The position numbers and the translations under genes are program-made. The notes under the pieces were generated by a model that was not told the origin of the DNA, did no database searches, and was given only the letters and a program-made list of their open reading frames with translations. Below, one piece after another: positions 1-46,669 of a stretch of DNA of 46,669 nucleotides; position 1 is the first letter of the stretch; every line of letters starts with the position of its first letter. This DNA is from a virus. The stretch lies in IMG/VR virus record IMGVR_UViG_3300010236_000002; one strand, written 5' to 3'.

Positions 1-99
1 GAGGCGGAGGCGGTGGAGATACCACAACTACATTAAGATATGCTCCTTATCTCGAGGGGCATCATCATCATTTGCTTGATATTGCTCGGGGAAACTATC
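1..99. repeat. Terminal overlap: nt 1-99 are identical to nt 46571-46669 (circular-assembly overlap or terminal redundancy)
   Basis: Direct comparison of the first and last 99 nt (gaggcggaggcggtggagat...gggaaactatc) shows identity. Confidence 0.95.
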
Positions 100-8250: not shown

Positions 8251-9441
8251 TTATTGTTGTTCGTAATCTTCATTATACTGCAGATACGTAGAACTTCCCT
8301 TGACAACCGTTCGGCAGAAGTTCATCTCCATAAGTGTAGCAGTTATTGCTGCGAGGGTGCGACTATCTGCGTCTAGGTATGTCATTCTCTGGAGCTCTGC
8401 TATACTTATCTCTTTCCTGCTCCCTATAATAGCCATCACTCGGTTCAGAGTATCGGCTTCTCTATTCTTCCCATATCCAGCAAACGTATGCGGCATGTTT
8501 CGCTCAGTTCGCTCTAGAATGTCCAGTGCTCGAAGGAAGTCCTCGTCTGTCAGAACCATATCGCCACAGCGACTAGCATTCATTATCATAGAGAGCTTCC
8601 ATAGATGCGTTGGCTTTCGCTCGAAGTATGGGGCGAAGCGATGATCGTCAAAGGGAGGCGGGCTATTGTCCGCTTTATAGTACCACTTTGTATAGACGTC
8701 GATAAAGCTATCGCTACATTGGAAGTTACCTTGCATCATCGAGATCTGTTCTAGGTCTATTAGCAACCGAGTCCCCAGTTCCTTTTCTTCTGGCGTTAGG
8801 AATGGCGCCAGCTCTGTGTGGTCTTTATTGCTTTCGTAGACAAAGATCATTCGACTTGTGAGGCCACCACCAATAGCATCAGGAGGCAGGGTTGAGTTGA
8901 GCAGTGCAGGTGTTGTTGCACCTATCAGGTTCACCCAGACTCCGGTTATGTCATCTGTTCCCATATTCTTCGTTCGATATTCCCAAGAGTCGCTACAGTC
9001 AAACCAGTCAGTCAAGTCCATCATCAGTTGTATGTTGTTGTATCCTAAGAATACAGTTAGTTCCTTGCTGAAGATCGTCAGCGAGGAGTGTAAGTACATC
9101 CTTCCACTCGCGTCTATGTGAGTATCTGAACTCGTTTTTAACTGATGTATCAAGGCCTCTCGGGTGATTGAGGAGCTCGATAGCTTTATCCCTAATTCTT
9201 TCAGGAAGCTTTCGCCGACAGACATAGCAGTCCCTTTTCGACACCGTCCTGGAGGACCAACAAGAACAATATACAGGTTCGGATATACGTTTATAGTGCC
9301 CCATTCGAGTTTAGTCTTCCTCCTCATACACGCAGCAATCACTGAGATAGCTGTCCATGTGTGATACATCCTCGGCGGCTCTGATCTCAAGGTGAATTCT
9401 AGATAACTCTCGAGCCAATCCTTGCACAGTCTCGTGCCCAT
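8251..9441 (-). CDS. P-loop NTPase, DUF3987/primase-helicase-like replication protein (396 aa)
   Basis: ATG 9441 has SD AAAGGAG upstream. P-loop-like LVGPPGRCRKGT, hydrophobic-acidic MIFVYE, and an N-terminal DWLESYLEF...YHTW segment typical of phage DUF3987-type proteins. The 5' 131 nt overlap the 3' end of the polymerase gene. Confidence 0.55.
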   Translation of the reverse strand: MGTRLCKDWLESYLEFTLRSEPPRMYHTWTAISVIAACMRRKTKLEWGTINVYPNLYIVLVGPPGRCRKGTAMSVGESFLKELGIKLSSSSITREALIHQLKTSSDTHIDASGRMYLHSSLTIFSKELTVFLGYNNIQLMMDLTDWFDCSDSWEYRTKNMGTDDITGVWVNLIGATTPALLNSTLPPDAIGGGLTSRMIFVYESNKDHTELAPFLTPEEKELGTRLLIDLEQISMMQGNFQCSDSFIDVYTKWYYKADNSPPPFDDHRFAPYFERKPTHLWKLSMIMNASRCGDMVLTDEDFLRALDILERTERNMPHTFAGYGKNREADTLNRVMAIIGSRKEISIAELQRMTYLDADSRTLAAITATLMEMNFCRTVVKGSSTYLQYNEDYEQQ

Positions 9442-21486: not shown

Positions 21487-22334
21487 TTTGCATCAAGGAT
21501 CTCTACCACAACTGGGAAACGTGGGACGCCTCGCGCGCTAGTCATATGCTGATAGCGAACACGTGCCATCTTTCCGATCAATCCCTCACGCTGTTGCCAA
21601 AGATTCTCTCTGGCAACACGTGTAAGTAGCGACCCGCTCCCGACCCTAAAGTGCGTACCGTCGTTTCCCATACACACAAGGGCACCAAGCGAGTTCTTAG
21701 GGACACCGTCAATGGAGATTTCTTCTTGCGTGGCAACAATCTCATATAGGTCCTCCTTTCTTGGCTTGAACTTCATTAAGCTTGTAGATCGCTTCCGCAC
21801 ATAAGGTGCAGATGCTTCCCTTAAGACAAAACCTTCATAACCAAGGCGAGCATATTCATCCTGTGCTGCCATGATTTCTTCAAGGTTGTTTACTATGCGC
21901 GAGGGCACGAGTTGAATCGGAGAGAAGTTTCTCTTCTGATTCGGGAAGAGATCTATAAGCAGCCGAGTCCTTTCGACTTGTGGGTGAGAGGTCACAATGT
22001 CGAAGACGTGGAACTCGACTAGCTTATAGTCTGGGTGGATGTTTTCTGTTCGAGATACGATAGAATGTATCTCACTATGTGGTGCTCCGTGGATGTAGAG
22101 TTCTCCATCGAGTTCTATATCATGTAGGCCAAGTGCGCGAAGAGCATCATTTATATGAGGTACACTCTTGTACTCGTTCATTTCACTACTAAGCAGTATA
22201 GCAGAGTCGTTACCTAAGATTGCTCTCGCTCGATCTCCGTCGAGTTTAGGTTGCTGAATATAAGGAGGTCTCCACTTAGCCAGTCTACGCTCCTCAAACG
22301 GCATACATAGCATGATACCAGCTCTCTTGCTCAT
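21477..22334 (-). CDS. ATP-dependent DNA ligase (285 aa)
   Basis: Motif I PKLDGDR, motif III ELDGELY, motif IV EGFVLR, motif V LMKFKP. ATG 22334 lies 5 nt after GGAGG, with an ATGA overlap to the HNH stop. The TTG 22346 in the ORF track is less likely. Confidence 0.9.
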   Translation of the reverse strand: MSKRAGIMLCMPFEERRLAKWRPPYIQQPKLDGDRARAILGNDSAILLSSEMNEYKSVPHINDALRALGLHDIELDGELYIHGAPHSEIHSIVSRTENIHPDYKLVEFHVFDIVTSHPQVERTRLLIDLFPNQKRNFSPIQLVPSRIVNNLEEIMAAQDEYARLGYEGFVLREASAPYVRKRSTSLMKFKPRKEDLYEIVATQEEISIDGVPKNSLGALVCMGNDGTHFRVGSGSLLTRVARENLWQQREGLIGKMARVRYQHMTSARGVPRFPVVVEILDANFV

Positions 22335-22807
22335 ATATGCCTCCAAAGGTGTGACTTCTTACTTACAGCGTTGAATATGGTTGACCTAGATACATTAAAC
22401 ATAGCTGCTAACTTAGTACATGACATTTTCCTACTGGTTGCGTATAGTGCTCTTATCTCAACTACTTGCTCTTCAGTTAACTTTGCTGTTCCATTAGCTG
22501 ACCCTTTCGCTTGCCTACCTTTTAAAGCCTTGTCAAACTGATTGCCTTGGTGTGTAGTAGAGAACAAGTGATCTGGATTAACACACGCAGGATTATCACA
22601 AGTATGTGCTATGTCTCCATCTGGGAGAATGCCATAGTGCAAAAAGTAAGCAACTCTATGTGCGCCCTCATAGCGACCATTTATCCAGATTCTCTTGTGG
22701 CCATACGAGTTATGATCTGCACAATCGAATATCCAGCAGCTACTTTCTGCTAGTTTAATTACTTTGCTATTAAACCTCTTTATATCTTTCTCGCTAAGGT
22801 CTAACAT
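22331..22807 (-). CDS. Free-standing HNH endonuclease with C-terminal HTH-like tail (158 aa)
   Basis: CWIFDCADHNSYGHKRIWINGRYEGAHRVAYFLHYG...HTCDNPACVNPDHL is the classic phage HNH pattern. Low GC. ATG 22807 follows GGAGG. Confidence 0.8.
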   Translation of the reverse strand: MLDLSEKDIKRFNSKVIKLAESSCWIFDCADHNSYGHKRIWINGRYEGAHRVAYFLHYGILPDGDIAHTCDNPACVNPDHLFSTTHQGNQFDKALKGRQAKGSANGTAKLTEEQVVEIRALYATSRKMSCTKLAAMFNVSRSTIFNAVSKKSHLWRHI

Positions 22808-25595: not shown

Positions 25596-25724
25596 TCACC
25601 AGTTCCACGTTCCTACGCCTAAACCATGTGTCACAGCGCCGTAGGCCAACCAGGCTACAAACACCAGCACTACATAAACCGCCCAGCGAACGCGCTGTCT
25701 GAACTTGTATATGTTCCTAGTCAT
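25596..25724 (-). CDS. Small membrane ORF (42 aa, one TMD)
   Basis: ATG 25724 follows GGGAGGTGA. Hydrophobic core: WAVYVVLVFVAWLAYGAV. Confidence 0.4.
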   Translation of the reverse strand: MTRNIYKFRQRVRWAVYVVLVFVAWLAYGAVTHGLGVGTWNW

Positions 25725-26328
25725 CTGTTTCACCTCCCTTCACTTGTCCATTAGCAGACATCATTTTAATAAGATCCGCCTGCTTCGCTTTGAACTCTCT
25801 ATCTCTTTGTGCCTGCGCCTCAGCGCGTGCTTGTATGCTATCTCCGCTAATAGCTTTAGTCGCAGCAGGAATAACTCCATTATTCTGCAAATGCGCTGCA
25901 GTTCTATGCACGGCAGCTTTACGCTCTTCTTCAGTCATATCTAAAAACGACTTCTGAGGTTGCTGTAGAGCAAGCATGCCATCTCGCTCAGCCTTTAGCA
26001 TACCCTTCTTCATCATAACATTAGGCGGAAGAGAGCCAGTCTCCTTGAAGTACGCCTCATCTGCGGCAGCCTGTAAGAGTGCCTTAGTAGCCCTTGGATT
26101 ACTGTGTAGTGACATGCCTATAGTTTCCATATAGTCAATAGCCTCAACCACAGAAGAAAACGGCTCTACACCATGCTTTCTATTATACAACCATGCTAAC
26201 TGCTCTACAGCATGCCATAGAACATCACTCTTCGACCTACACCCAGCACCTTCCTTCTCGTACGCCCTGGCTAACTCGGCGAAGCTAGTGATACTAACCC
26301 TCGCCTGTACACTAACCGTCTTGTGCAT
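25717..26328 (-). CDS. Early protein (203 aa), possible RHH-like N-terminus
   Basis: The preferred start is ATG 26328 (MHKTVSVQARVS), 7 nt after GGAGGG. The ATG 26343 of the ORF track has no SD. It is downstream of the promoter at 26359-26387. Confidence 0.6.
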   Translation of the reverse strand: MHKTVSVQARVSITSFAELARAYEKEGAGCRSKSDVLWHAVEQLAWLYNRKHGVEPFSSVVEAIDYMETIGMSLHSNPRATKALLQAAADEAYFKETGSLPPNVMMKKGMLKAERDGMLALQQPQKSFLDMTEEERKAAVHRTAAHLQNNGVIPAATKAISGDSIQARAEAQAQRDREFKAKQADLIKMMSANGQVKGGETDD

Positions 26329-26358
26329 CACCTGTCCCTCCATGTCATTATTTCAGCC

Positions 26359-26387
26359 AACATATCACATAAACACATAGAAGTCAA
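26359..26387 (-). promoter_or_regulatory. sigma70-type promoter TTGACT-17 nt-TATGTT (leftward)
   Basis: Minus strand: -35 at 26387-26382 and -10 at 26364-26359. Near-identical to the promoter at 23970-23998. Confidence 0.65.
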
Positions 26388-26407
26388 GCTCTACACAAAT
26401 GTTTGCA

Positions 26408-26675
26408 TGTTTGCTATGTATGTATGTATGTCTGTATACATGTATACAGTATACACCCAGTACCTCCCCAATGCCATTATTTCATGTATCTCGCTTTTTG
26501 ATCTCCTCTCTCTTATCTTCTAGTTATTTTTTTTATATAGTAATATATATATATAAGTAGAAAGAAAAGAAGAGAGAAAGAAAAGAGAAGAAACGAACTA
26601 AAGGCCAAAAAAATCATTGGGGAGGTATCCCATGTATACTGTATACATGTATACATACACACATACATACAAACA
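26408..26675. repeat. Composite inverted repeat (~60-bp arms, nested polypyrimidine/polypurine arms, A/T core); candidate replication origin or cruciform
   Basis: The left arm (26408-26473) is the approximate reverse complement of the right arm (26615-26675). Both arms contain the perfect 16-bp palindrome TGTATACATGTATACA (26433-26448, 26640-26655) and TACCTCCCCAATG. A CT-rich tract (26491-26521) faces a GA-rich tract (26558-26594) around TTATTTTTTTTATATAGTAATATATATATATAAG. Confidence 0.85.
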
Positions 26676-26717
26676 CACAACCCTGAGTTCATGCCCTCTA
26701 TAGAGGGCAAGAATAGG

Positions 26718-26930
26718 TTATTCGTGATTACTTAGGTAGTCAATCATAGCTGCCGCGATTGTTCCTCCGTACATACTGTTACACCAGTCAACGAACTCTT
26801 CTAAGGTCTTTCCTGTTTTATCCTTACGGTATGCAAGGCTAACCAGCAGACCAAACTTGTCACTGCAATCTGTGTTGTGTGGATACTTACTAATAAACGT
26901 ACCAAGATCTGTATCTGCAACTTTTTCCAT
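26718..26930 (-). CDS. Hypothetical early protein (70 aa)
   Basis: ATG 26930 follows GGAGGAGAGAAG. It is flanked by the 14-nt direct repeat TTCATGCCCTCTAT (26688-26701 and 26948-26961). Confidence 0.6.
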   Translation of the reverse strand: MEKVADTDLGTFISKYPHNTDCSDKFGLLVSLAYRKDKTGKTLEEFVDWCNSMYGGTIAAAMIDYLSNHE

Positions 26931-26975
26931 CTTCTCTCCTCCATAGATTCATGCCCTCTATCCGTCCCGCCTCGA

Positions 26976-26998: not shown

Positions 26999-27361
26999 TT
27001 ACTCCGCTTTCCCCGCTGCCGCTTCCATCATCTCGCGCATAAGCTCCAGCGCTTTCGCCGCGTCTCCACCGGCTTTCCGCAGAATCGTCTTCACCGCTTT
27101 CTCCGCAGAGACCTCTCCTGTCGCGCGCGTCCCAGGCTTTGGCACGACATATGTTGCCTGCGTCGGAATAGCAACCGCGCCGTCTTTCTTCAACGCTGCC
27201 CTTCTCGCTGCGGCCTGCCACTTAATCACCGCAGAGTCCGCGGCCATATTGAAGATATCCTCCTCGCTCAGGTTCGAGAAATCCAGTGTAAGTTCTGTAA
27301 CTGTCTCCCCGTCACCTTCAAACCGCCTGGTCCTGCATGTAACTGTAACTTTCTTCTCCAT
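26999..27361 (-). CDS. First early protein of the leftward block (120 aa), apparent paralogue of CDS 23544-23900
   Basis: The preferred start is ATG 27361 (MEKKVTVT), after AGGAGGTGA (27375-27367). The longer ORF-track version starts inside the structured leader. Confidence 0.65.
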   Translation of the reverse strand: MEKKVTVTCRTRRFEGDGETVTELTLDFSNLSEEDIFNMAADSAVIKWQAAARRAALKKDGAVAIPTQATYVVPKPGTRATGEVSAEKAVKTILRKAGGDAAKALELMREMMEAAAGKAE

Positions 27362-27429
27362 CTCTCTCACCTCCTGCCCGTTTCGGGCGAAAAAACGAGG
27401 CGAGACTGATAGAGAGCATGAACTCCCTC

Positions 27430-27521
27430 GAGGGCATAACACGCCTGCTTATTTGTTATTAGATGTCACTTACCTCGCCAGGTGCAAAATCCCATTCCAT
27501 AAGCAGGCTTATTATGCCCTC
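27430..27521 (-). promoter_or_regulatory. Long imperfect hairpin in the 5' leader of the leftward early transcript
   Basis: GAGGGCATAAcacGCCTGCTTAT (27430-27452) pairs with ATAAGCAGGCttaTTATGCCCTC (27499-27521). That gives 20 bp in two 10-bp helices with a 46-nt loop, between the promoter at 27709-27737 and the SD at 27367-27375. Confidence 0.6.
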
Positions 27522-27708
27522 GAGTTCCCAGTCAAGGCGTATCGTGTCACACTCGATTCGTCACCGAGCGAGGCCTTGCCGATTCGCAACATTGCGTTGT
27601 TGGTTCGGTTGCCCGTCCATTGACGTAACACAGAAACACCACGTTACGTGTATCGGTCGAACCCGCCATGCGATATGTCAAAGATCATCATCTCATTTTG
27701 TTGACTCC

Positions 27709-27949: not shown

Positions 27950-28102
27950 CTTTTCGTTGTAGGTAGAAATTATTGCTATATCTGTGCCAAACCTTTCATT
28001 TTTGTGCAATTTGCTAATCTACACAGAGCTCTGCTAATAGGCGTGCATCTATCCCAAGGAAGACACCTAATAGCACGCCTAAAAATTCATTCATGAAAAC
28101 AC

Positions 28103-34835: not shown

Positions 34836-35113
34836 ACGAAGATAGGCTGGAGATATCTATAAGCGACCTTGAGAGCTTTGCAGAGAATAGGGTCTGGAGA
34901 CTCCTCGTGCAAGCTGCGATCAGTAGGACGAATGAGGAAGTAGAAAGAATTATTGGAACTAGTGCCTTCAAAGATCCTGATGTGATTAGCAGAGGACAGG
35001 GCTATATAGAAGGCATGAACTTCATGATTGATTATCCAGCAGTGCTTAAGGAACAGCTGGAATACCAACAACAAGAGGAGACTTGGAAAGATGGGAATAG
35101 AGAACGAGATTAA
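34832..35113 (+). CDS. Hypothetical protein (93 aa)
   Basis: The ATG overlaps the portal stop (ATGA). Confidence 0.5.
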   Translation: MNEDRLEISISDLESFAENRVWRLLVQAAISRTNEEVERIIGTSAFKDPDVISRGQGYIEGMNFMIDYPAVLKEQLEYQQQEETWKDGNRERD

Positions 35114-42736: not shown

Positions 42737-43474
42737 GTGGACTACGTTGATATAAGAAAAAAGTTCTGCGAGATTTCTGGCCGCTACGATCTGATGACTG
42801 CTACGTATGAAGATAACGGGGCAGATTTCTTTCTGAACCTTGCGCAGAAATACCTCGACCGCTTCTTTGATGATGGAAAGGCTATCGCTCGGTATCCAGT
42901 AGCCTTGGCTGCTGGGGAGTATATAGCTAAGACTGTTGGTATTAGGTCGATCAAGGAAGTATGGATTGCGAATAGCGATGGGAAGAGCGAACTCGAAAAG
43001 TGCACTCTTCAGGGGCTGCAGACAGAATATAGCGATGGGTTTGCTTATACTGACCAAGGGACGCCAGCTTACTACGCTCCAGCAGTCTTTCGGCCTTATC
43101 CAGATACGCTGGCAAGTATCACTGGCTTGTATGGAGTAGATGACCTTATCCTCAACGCAACGGAGCACTATACCTACAATGGTGTAGTAATCATGCCCCC
43201 GCCTGATGTAGCTTACACGCTTGAGATAGTCGGGCTCTTCTACTCTCCAACGCTGAGCGCAACCCTAAGCGGTGCAGTGTGGACGCAGACTAAGAGCTAC
43301 TGGACAGAAGTCCACCCTGAGACACTGATAAAGGCTGCTATCTACCAAATGAAAGCGATGTATCATGATAGTAGCTCGGCGGACTACAAAGCTATCTTGG
43401 CTGAGGACGTAACAGGGCTAATCGCTGACGATACAGAGCAGATGCTAACTAGCTACCTCCAGATGAATGGCTAA
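42737..43474 (+). CDS. Hypothetical structural protein (245 aa), head-tail connector/tail region
   Basis: GTG 42737 lies 6 nt after AAGGAG. The call rests on position only. Confidence 0.5.
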   Translation: MDYVDIRKKFCEISGRYDLMTATYEDNGADFFLNLAQKYLDRFFDDGKAIARYPVALAAGEYIAKTVGIRSIKEVWIANSDGKSELEKCTLQGLQTEYSDGFAYTDQGTPAYYAPAVFRPYPDTLASITGLYGVDDLILNATEHYTYNGVVIMPPPDVAYTLEIVGLFYSPTLSATLSGAVWTQTKSYWTEVHPETLIKAAIYQMKAMYHDSSSADYKAILAEDVTGLIADDTEQMLTSYLQMNG

Positions 43475-43875: not shown

Positions 43876-44348
43876 TGGACGCAGTTGTTGTAAAAGGTGG
43901 GAAGTTCACCTTTGTTGCTAATGCGCTGGAGCTTTCCAGAGGACTTAGGCCGAGTAAGAGGACTCCGAGGAATATGGAGTATCTGGTCGAGTGCTCTGGT
44001 GCTATAGGTGATGACGGGGTGCTCTCTGTGATGGATGAGGTTACTAGGGTGGCAACTGACATTATCACGGATAGCTTCCCGTTTCCACAGATATTCGTCT
44101 TTACAAACGTGATCTTGGTCTGCGGACGGAATAAGATATACGAGTGGAATGGCACAAGTCTTGTGCTTAAGTACACAGCTACAACGGCTGGCAGTACGTG
44201 GGCAGCGGTAGACTTCTTTGATTACATCTACCTGAGCAACGGAGTTGAAGCAGTGGAGAGAGATGCAGGGAGTAAGACCTACGTGCTTTCTACTACGCTT
44301 CCAACAGCTCAGGCGATGTGTAACTATAATGGGCAAGTGATGATATGA
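43875..44348 (+). CDS. Hypothetical structural protein (157 aa)
   Basis: The ATG overlaps the upstream stop (TAATG). Confidence 0.55.
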   Translation: MDAVVVKGGKFTFVANALELSRGLRPSKRTPRNMEYLVECSGAIGDDGVLSVMDEVTRVATDIITDSFPFPQIFVFTNVILVCGRNKIYEWNGTSLVLKYTATTAGSTWAAVDFFDYIYLSNGVEAVERDAGSKTYVLSTTLPTAQAMCNYNGQVMI

Positions 44349-46545: not shown

Positions 46546-46669
46546 ATGGGTGGTGGTGGAAAAGGCGGTGGAGGCGGAGGCGGTGGAGATACCACAACTA
46601 CATTAAGATATGCTCCTTATCTCGAGGGGCATCATCATCATTTGCTTGATATTGCTCGGGGAAACTATC
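46546..46669 (+). CDS. 5' part of the junction-spanning Gly-rich gene (continues at nt 1-866)
   Basis: ATG 46546 lies 2 nt after stop 46543 and reads MGGGGKGGGGGGGGDTTTTLRYAPYLEGHHHHLLDIARGNY. It is in phase with the frame that ends at 866. Confidence 0.6.
   Translation, partial: MGGGGKGGGGGGGGDTTTTLRYAPYLEGHHHHLLDIARGNY
46571..46669. repeat. Terminal overlap, second copy (identical to nt 1-99)
   Basis: Direct comparison shows identity. Confidence 0.95.

Follow-up and report, generated by a model that had tools for sequence, protein, structure and literature searches.

The early region of the phage genome IMGVR_UViG_3300010236_000002 contains a dyad-symmetric, non-coding element in which two inverted arrays of short repeats flank the least stable duplex of the genome. 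The window, meaning the whole stretch of 46,669 nucleotides analysed here, is a complete phage assembled as a circle (99-bp terminal overlap, 46,570 unique bp). Elements of the same architecture occupy the matching early-region position in at least 14 relatives, at TerL identities down to ~44%. We read the element as a putative bidirectional replication origin, with inverted iteron sets on both sides of an unwinding element, and hold this reading at a probability of about 0.5 because three rival explanations share parts of the evidence.

As the probable origin, the element would be of an ordinary kind, with a layout not described before. Origins composed of iterons and a DNA-unwinding element are textbook knowledge, and no specialist would be surprised that a phage has one. 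New are the clade-wide grammar (inverted arrays with an 8-bp period, C/G boxes, pyrimidine and purine tracts, and an adjoining outward promoter), the fast sequence turnover beneath the layout that is kept, and the occurrence of the element in a cultured phage, Mel-JY34, where it is testable. To our knowledge, replication origins are unknown for nearly all uncultured phages and for the PaP2/MD01/Mel-JY34 group (PolA/DUF3987 phages). The element provides an origin candidate that can be defined by sequence, and its grammar can be searched for in metagenomes. It could also help to pair initiator specificity domains with their cognate sites.

Genomic location and anatomy

The early and replication genes form a minus-strand block from ~8.2 to 27.4 kb, and the structural genes lie on the plus strand from terS (28157) onward. 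Apart from the genes listed in Table 1, the early block encodes, on the minus strand, a ParB-methylase, a dCMP deaminase, Sak4, a PD-(D/E)XK exonuclease, a ligase and HNH endonucleases. The phage has its own PolA and P-loop DUF3987 protein, a gene complement in keeping with an origin of its own. The element occupies a 374-bp gap between a 70-aa gene (26718-26930, minus strand) and the gene of the 208-aa protein. It is separated from terS by 1.5 kb that include a divergent promoter region. Repeat and motif searches found a single copy per genome.

Positions 26403-26685 constitute one imperfect, non-coding dyad of ~290 bp with its axis near 26544. The arms (26417-26473 and 26615-26671) are 57 nt each, 88% complementary and 141 nt apart, and represent the largest inverted repeat of the whole 46.6-kb genome. 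From left to right, RCATGTAY repeats with an 8-bp period are followed by a C4-AATG box, a pyrimidine tract and a centre of T8 and (TA)n; beyond the centre come a 35-nt pure purine tract, a CATT-G4 box and the inverted repeat arrays. Autocorrelation of the left array peaks at lag 8, as it does in most relatives. The exact 16-mer palindrome TGTATACATGTATACA occurs at 26433 and 26640, and all four genome copies of TGTATACA fall inside the element. The arms are repeat arrays and permit no unambiguous alignment. A perfect palindrome in each arm, the C/G boxes and the A/T core had all been named in the preliminary description, and sequence checks recovered each of them.

Two other claims of that description stand in part. 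The composite inverted repeat is real, but it is modular: the stretches 26474-26490 on the left and 26595-26614 on the right are unpaired spacers, and the dyad centre itself is not palindromic. The functional unit is also larger than first described, as it includes the promoter at 26359-26387 and the small palindrome at 26688-26713. The mirrored CT and GA tracts are both present but only ~70% complementary, and pyrimidine-versus-purine composition alone gives not much less. The 35-nt purine run is the longest homopurine/homopyrimidine run of the genome (the runner-up measures 22 nt). A check for H-DNA motifs found in it only a 10-nt mirror repeat with an 8-nt spacer.

Table 1. Positions of the modules of the dyad element and of the early genes and proteins considered with it.
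Feature	Position	Strand	Description
DUF3987 "primase" P-loop protein	8251-9441	-	Early/replication block
PolA with UDG-like N-terminus	9311-12721	-	Early/replication block
208-aa early protein	25717-26343	-	First gene of the promoter-proximal operon
Sigma70-like promoter	26359-26387	-	TTGACT, 17-nt spacer, TG-TATGTT (promoter scan)
Left iteron array	26403-26458		~6 units, 8-bp period, TGTATGTA / TGTATACA type; direct-repeat family, spacing 8
C-box TACCTCCCCAATG	26461-26473		Inverted partner of the G-box
Pyrimidine-rich tract	26478-26531	+ (top strand)	80% pyrimidine; core 26491-26521, 87%
A+T core	26522-26557		92% A+T; T8 at 26527-26534, then TATATAGTAATATATATATATAAG; candidate DNA-unwinding element
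Pure purine (GA) tract	26559-26593	+	35 nt
G-box CATTGGGGAGGTA	26615-26627		
Right iteron array	26628-26683		Inverted relative to the left array; hypervariable between strains through slippage of 8-nt units
Small palindrome TTCATGCCCTCTA/TAGAGGGCAAGAA	26688-26713		Just past the stop codon of the 70-aa gene (inverted-repeat search)
120-aa early protein family	26999-27361	-	Constant upstream neighbour of the element in relatives (synteny)

Folding and duplex stability

As single-stranded DNA the element folds at -69.4 kcal/mol, compared with -23.0 +/- 3.6 kcal/mol for dinucleotide shuffles (z = -13), and none of 100 shuffles folds as well. This value and the 57-nt arms confirm the reverse-complement arms of about 60 nt that had been claimed. 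The leftward RNA reaches -132.6 kcal/mol against -68.0 kcal/mol (z = -12.6).

Nearest-neighbour free energies computed along the entire genome place the least stable duplex at the dyad centre at each of three scales: 26525-26554 for 30 bp, 26513-26562 for 50 bp and 26494-26593 for 100 bp. The minimal 30-mer has -25.0 kcal/mol, ~5 standard deviations from the genome mean of -41.1 (sd 3.2). The dyad centre is likewise the stability minimum in two complete genomes, those of MD01 and Mel-JY34, and in the relatives L002, L014, L076, L010, L070 and L078.

Conservation of the layout in related phages

A DNA search of GenBank phages with the region gave no match in near or distant modes, and protein searches with the 208-aa and 147-aa neighbours gave none in IMG/VR or GenBank phages. 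A TerL search of GenBank returned one distant relative, Desulfofustis phage LS06-2018-MD01 (MD01), at 44% identity. Relatives were thus gathered by TerL alignment, comprising 80 IMG/VR loci and 3 MAG contigs. The comparison with related phages that had been suggested earlier bears out the origin-like anatomy, which recurs at the equivalent position across a diverged clade. It lies 1-2.8 kb upstream of terS in a divergent early operon and is syntenic in phages with 44-88% TerL identity, its sequence diverging together with the genome. It has been assembled independently from many samples.

Where homologues of the 208-aa and 120-aa proteins are kept, the equivalent gap carries a large dyad (L002, L010, L014 and L076) or a partial one (L007 and L028). 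The grammar that the relatives have in common begins with an outward promoter, an iteron array, a C-rich box (often CCCC-A-A/T-TG) and a pyrimidine tract, and continues with a T-run and (TA)n, a purine tract, a G-rich box and the inverted iteron array. The pyrimidine tract is also present in L002, L014, L076, L010, L007 and L028. Fold z-scores range from -4.9 to -13 in 13 elements, and that of Mel-JY34 is -4.1.

An 8-nt period is the autocorrelation maximum in most arms of the relatives, and the repeated unit is specific to the lineage: ACATGTAT-like, ACGCATAC, GTCAGCC or CGTAATC, with a 9-nt unit in L070. A constant period and layout with a changing unit is the pattern that would be expected from co-evolution of the sites with a specific initiator. 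Among shared 6-mers, T-runs, TATATA and C/G runs show the strongest enrichment. CCCC and GGGG flank the axis at matching distances in 9 of 15 elements, the former 60-120 nt to its left and the latter 66-93 nt to its right. Of the loci compared, 24 extend at least 1.5 kb upstream of terS; in 16 of them the least stable 50-mer of the locus lies 1.0-4.3 kb upstream of terS, and a BLAST-detectable dyad spans it in 9 of these 16. Beyond the dyads detected by BLAST, several more loci carry the common grammar when read by eye.

The MD01 analogue is a 380-bp dyad (43054-43434) at the matching early-region position with short repeats in its arms. It contains four TAGTGGGATAATAT repeats, a G9 run and an A17/AT-rich centre. 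These inner repeats look DnaA-box-like by eye; by the same inspection, no DnaA boxes were seen in the element of the present genome. The cultured Microcystis phage Mel-JY34 has the same genome layout and a dyad with a T9 centre at ~44.1-44.3 kb.

Strain variation and open reading frames

Contigs L085-L087 represent strains that are 92-96% identical to this genome over the element. Among the differences, the left arm shows a 1-nt indel, the purine tract a 14-nt duplication, and the right arm alone either an insertion of an 8-nt unit or 5-6 substitutions. None of these changes is compensated on the opposite side, and the predicted hairpin energies of the strains vary from -50.6 to -65.2 kcal/mol. 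Exact base-pairing is therefore not under tight selection, which weakens the earlier suggestion of a cruciform insofar as an exact one would be needed. Such loose pairing favours symmetric sites for protein binding rather than a cruciform or RNA stem that would have to be perfect.

The three open reading frames listed over the element are not genes, because the strains carry indels of 1, 8 and 14 nt inside them. This supports their earlier dismissal as low-complexity artefacts. The element accounts for the spurious small open reading frames that gene callers place over it, including those in the GenBank record of MD01.

Eight contigs (L007, L028, L063, L064, L072 and L087-L089) end in or beside the element, and three others (L014, L076 and L029) read straight through it. 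We attribute the many contig ends to strain variability combined with hairpin and homopolymer sequence, which accounts for the frequent assembly breaks at the element in these phages.

Transcriptional context

The sigma70-like promoter at 26359-26387 adjoins the left arm and fires outward, to the 208-aa gene. Promoters resembling TTGAC(A/T)-17-TATGAT occupy the equivalent place and orientation in L002, L014, L076, L010, L029, L078, L028 and Mel-JY34. The Mel-JY34 promoter is a called TTGACA-17-TATGGT directly after the element. A weaker TTGCAA-17-TAAGAT match is found at the promoter position of L001, and a promoter-like match of the same sequence follows the element in MD01. Elsewhere in the present genome, sigma70-like promoters diverge from the gap at 27.44-28.16 kb, and another leftward one lies at 25559-25531. 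The early promoter at 27737-27709 is directed toward the element.

No intrinsic terminator was called in 26344-26717. The stem of the element is A+T-rich, ~140 bp long and has no U-run behind it, which is not the form of an intrinsic terminator. In MD01, an intrinsic terminator (12-bp stem, T8 tail) was called between the upstream gene and the element, and in Mel-JY34 a terminator-like hairpin ahead of the element was read by eye. The element is thus probably a spacer between transcription units in these two phages. Because terminators precede it there, the conserved role cannot need transcription through the element, and the conserved function is most simply one at the DNA level.

Candidate initiator proteins

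In the DUF3987 protein, a P-loop (GPPGRCRKGT) is combined with an HTH-like segment at the C-terminus that is poorly conserved, and we consider the protein a candidate origin-binding helicase or initiator. Its family profile matches PDB sequences only as an AAA+ P-loop, and weakly. Identity to the MD01 orthologue is 22% over the C-terminal 75 aa and 53% over the core. A specificity domain matched to lineage-specific iterons could look like this diverged C-terminus, and protein C-termini are often variable in any case. The candidate gene lies 17 kb from the element. No recognisable initiator gene stands beside it, and both flanking families match nothing known.

The 208-aa protein may tentatively be regarded as a candidate iteron-binding protein. 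Members of its family are encoded in the operon downstream of the promoter in this genome and in L002, L010 and L078. Its AF2 model (pLDDT 72) has an extended segment (residues 1-12) followed by helices at 13-25 and 33-51, and we speculate that the N-terminus is compatible with a ribbon-helix-helix domain. This idea remains a guess based on secondary structure because the model has no significant Foldseek match in the PDB. The AF2 model of the 120-aa protein (pLDDT 84) has none either, and none of the 36 homologues of the latter carries a Pfam domain. Neither family has a match in Pfam, PHROGs, NCBIfam or PDB sequences.

A putative bidirectional replication origin

In the mechanism that we propose, a phage-encoded initiator would bind on either side of the centre, to the two inverted arrays of lineage-specific iterons with an 8-bp period and to the conserved C/G boxes; the 208-aa protein and the DUF3987 protein with its P-loop and HTH-like domain are the candidates for this role. 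The unstable, strand-asymmetric centre (pyrimidine tract, T-run, (TA)n and purine tract) would then melt as the unwinding element, and helicase and polymerase could load head-to-head, as at SaPI, SV40 and HSV origins. The strong, outward-firing promoter beside the left arm may help opening through the negative supercoiling left behind. As such an origin would have, at least two short repeats in opposite orientation lie on each side of the centre, both here and in the relatives, and the central A+T-rich segment is of exceptionally low stability at 30, 50 and 100 bp, as it is in 8 relatives and in Mel-JY34.

The anatomy, the conserved position and the least stable centre thus speak for the origin that had been suggested earlier; the GC skew gives it no support. 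The cumulative GC-skew minimum, which had been named as a check, lies at 28102, 1.55 kb from the dyad axis. It is uninformative about the origin, neither supporting nor refuting it, because it coincides with the coding-strand switch. The GC, purine and keto skews track gene orientation and do not locate an origin.

Several known origins resemble the element in layout. The HSV-1 oriL/oriS and SV40 core origins are palindromes of 45-144 bp that bind UL9 or large T antigen. Their initiator sites form dyad-symmetric arrays around or next to a melting segment rich in A+T, between transcription units, a layout that the element resembles. The present element differs in being ~290 bp long, imperfect and modular, and in residing in a tailed phage. 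At origins of the lambda and P4 type, iterons co-vary with the initiator from one related phage to another, an AT-rich purine-asymmetric stretch lies adjacent and nearby transcription is needed; the P4 iterons are octamers. Iterons next to an AT-rich segment with purine/pyrimidine strand asymmetry are thus common to lambda and the present phage, but the lambda origin is located inside gene O with direct iterons on one side only, whereas the element here is intergenic and symmetric.

In layout, the published description of SaPI origins corresponds to the element point by point: their 6-12 short iterons are split evenly between the two sides of an AT-rich centre and face opposite ways. The SaPI iterons are bound by a self-loading helicase, and their sequence is specific to each SaPI (PMC9371898). 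The comparison is one of layout, with no sequence homology. SaPI iterons are penta- or hexanucleotides immediately downstream of rep, whereas the period here is 8 bp, the candidate helicase gene is distant, and C/G boxes and long pyrimidine/purine tracts are present. The iterons of RepA_N plasmids and PLE are semi-palindromic repeats of 8-9 bp that converge on a poly-A tract (PMC7145576). There, however, a composite unit is repeated directly and a RepA_N protein binds it; no RepA_N-like gene was found here.

Alternative functions

A purely regulatory role fits much of the evidence, because an 8-bp period is typical of ribbon-helix-helix operators and the element adjoins a promoter. Both arrays could be operator sub-sites for a small phage DNA-binding protein, with replication starting elsewhere; the 208-aa protein, for instance, could coat the arms, loop the AT-rich spacer and switch the promoter, serving early/middle timing or autoregulation. 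We regard this regulatory array as possible but rather unlikely. It would agree with the near-consensus sigma70 promoter that adjoins the left arm in 8 of the 14 scanned relatives and in Mel-JY34 (weaker in MD01), with the 208-aa family encoded downstream of that promoter, and with the extended segment and two helices of its model. Known ribbon-helix-helix arrays (MetJ metboxes, ParG parH, omega heptads) likewise consist of tandem 7-8-bp sub-sites, direct and inverted, by the promoter of their own operon. They occur, however, without a 150-bp unstable pyrimidine/purine centre, and no partner partition ATPase is present here. A regulatory array would moreover rely on a fold for which Pfam, PDB sequences and Foldseek gave no match, and it leaves the extreme instability of the centre in nearly every relative unexplained. 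A consensus promoter does not depend on an activator bound upstream, and the right array is over 250 bp upstream of the promoter; in L014, two other genes stand between the promoter and the 208-aa homologue.

We think it improbable that the element is a pac site or genome terminus; in that case the first packaging cut would fall here, once the small terminase had attached to the arrays and bent or looped the centre. The pac sites of P1 and SPP1 (pacL-pacC-pacR) are bound by the small terminase and have two short-repeat clusters around a central region that is bent and cut, much like the present layout, and the element is always found within 1-2.8 kb of terS. Those pac sites nevertheless lie within or at terS; here a divergent promoter region and one or two early genes intervene. 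Two distant relatives, PaP2 and Mel-JY34, have linear GenBank records with an end inside or beside the analogous non-coding region, although the start points of such records are often arbitrary. Many metagenomic contigs also end in or by the element, which slippage variation and assembly breaks at hairpins and homopolymers explain equally well, and the circle of this genome breaks elsewhere while the three contigs named above continue over the element. For Shea, a PaP2-like phage, terminal redundancy of the ends and an episomal carrier state are reported (PMC13348215).

Two structural explanations attract still less of our confidence. Leftward read-through would give a hairpin with a stem of ~140 bp that could end, insulate or stabilise the upstream mRNA or yield a small RNA, for example as an RNase III site or a 3' protective structure. 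The folding energy of the leftward transcript, the lack of a canonical terminator between the 70-aa gene and the element in this genome, and the early promoter aimed at the element are all compatible with this. The large RNA hairpin that had been suggested earlier is nonetheless weakened by the terminator or terminator-like hairpin ahead of the element in the two relatives, by the missing U-run and by the changes in one arm that go uncompensated in the other. A search of Rfam 15 gave hits only to mir-297; at 28 bits, below the gathering score of 90, these are low-complexity matches due to chance. We give similarly little credence to selection for extrusion of the entire 290-bp dyad as a cruciform under negative supercoiling, with the structure itself as the signal. 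The cruciform might act as a supercoil-sensing switch that couples early transcription to the start of replication; alternatively, a junction-specific nuclease might nick the structure and so prime replication or make genome ends. The palindromic origins of HSV-1 and SV40 are prone to cruciform formation and clone instability. We know of no structure-triggered origin or terminus described for tailed phages.

We consider it extremely improbable that the element is a miniature inverted-repeat mobile element or arose as an artefact of assembly or amplification. The terminal inverted repeats and the non-coding location would suit such a reading, but the element is present once per genome, is syntenic and independently assembled in diverged phages, and has no target-site duplication in its flanks as judged by eye; no empty site was found, and the mobile element and the assembly artefact were both rejected. 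We also rejected a protelomerase target (telRL, N15-type). All early-region open reading frames of at least 250 aa are otherwise assigned (PolA, DUF3987, ParB-methylase, Sak4, exonuclease and ligase), and the dyad centre lacks the palindrome.

A palindrome at a module boundary

The motif of the small palindrome beside the right array is found again at 26948, 27409 and 35006, and the strains L085 and L086 diverge from this genome to the right of the copy at the element. The palindrome delimits a mosaic gene module and does not have the form of a canonical terminator.

Assembly breaks and window ends

In this phage clade, numerous independent contigs from metagenomes end within the dyad element or at most a few hundred bases away (L007, L028, L063, L064, L072, L087, L088 and L089). 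The element is an assembly-break hot spot, probably caused by strain-level repeat slippage together with hairpin and homopolymer sequence. The ends of the window, which lie in the structural gene region, share an exact direct overlap of 99 bp, showing that the assembly is circular or circularly permuted.

Coordinates of features in the window and in related phages
Feature	Record	Coordinates	Strand
99-bp end overlap	window	1-99 and 46571-46669	
DNA polymerase A ORF	window	9311-12721	-
HNH endonuclease gene	window	15399-16010	-
HNH endonuclease gene	window	22331-22807	-
TTCATGCCCTCTAT motif	window	26688-26713, 26948-26961, 27409-27422, 35006-35019	
27-nt inverted repeat	window	26948-26974 and 27396-27422	
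26-nt inverted repeat of leader	window	27427-27452 and 27499-27524	
Bracketed 120-aa gene homologue	L014	7397-7861	
Leader dyads	L002	3807-4150	
Sites of annotation problem	MD01, OP947158.1	42356-42817 and 43076-43537	
Analogous dyad	Mel-JY34, PP438425.1	~44090-44333	
Non-coding region at record ends	PaP2, NC_005884.1	43330-43783 and 1-380	

Analogous regions in named phages

The cultured Microcystis phage Mel-JY34 (L096) carries an analogous dyad built around a T9 centre, the least stable 50-mer in its genome, and a TTGACA-17-TATGGT promoter directly follows. This phage offers a tractable setting in which to test the element. In the GenBank record of Desulfofustis phage MD01 (L001), small minus-strand 'hypothetical protein' ORFs are annotated over that phage's dyad element, and the 120-aa early protein's homologue on the plus strand is overlooked. 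These faults are probably artefacts of the palindrome.

The linear record of Pseudomonas phage PaP2 (L095) starts and stops within a non-coding region of ~900 bp that lies ~2 kb upstream of terS, a position analogous to that of the element. Short repeats of the AAGGTA, ATAGGGGA and CCTTGGGC types abound in this region, which lacks a strong AT-rich core. Phage Shea, which is near-identical to PaP2, is reported to be an episomal pseudolysogen whose ends are terminally redundant (PMC13348215).

Repeats and a mosaic junction beside the early genes

The two arms of a 27-nt inverted repeat that includes TTCATGC(C/T)CTCTAT enclose the entire 120-aa early gene. Equivalent brackets flank its homologue in seven related loci (L014, L026, L007, L062, L064, L010 and L076), and the repeat could form a long-range RNA processing stem or represent paired operators. 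Directly upstream of the gene, the leader of the early leftward operon contains a 26-nt inverted repeat whose arms are 92% complementary; leader dyads occupy the matching place in the relatives L002 and L010.

The motif TTCATGCCCTCTAT occurs five times in the window against 0.4 expected, usually directly upstream of a ribosome-binding site or following a stop codon. At 26688-26713 the motif makes up a palindrome marking a mosaic module junction, the boundary at which another gene replaces the 70-aa gene in strains L085 and L086.

Possible homing elements in the replication block

The DNA polymerase A ORF has a UDG-superfamily domain at its N-terminus and an insert of ~300 aa (residues ~515-833). 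Matches of the insert to LAGLIDADG and intein-like sequences suggest an intein or homing endonuclease within PolA. The early/replication block also encodes two free-standing HNH endonucleases, both of which could be homing endonucleases.
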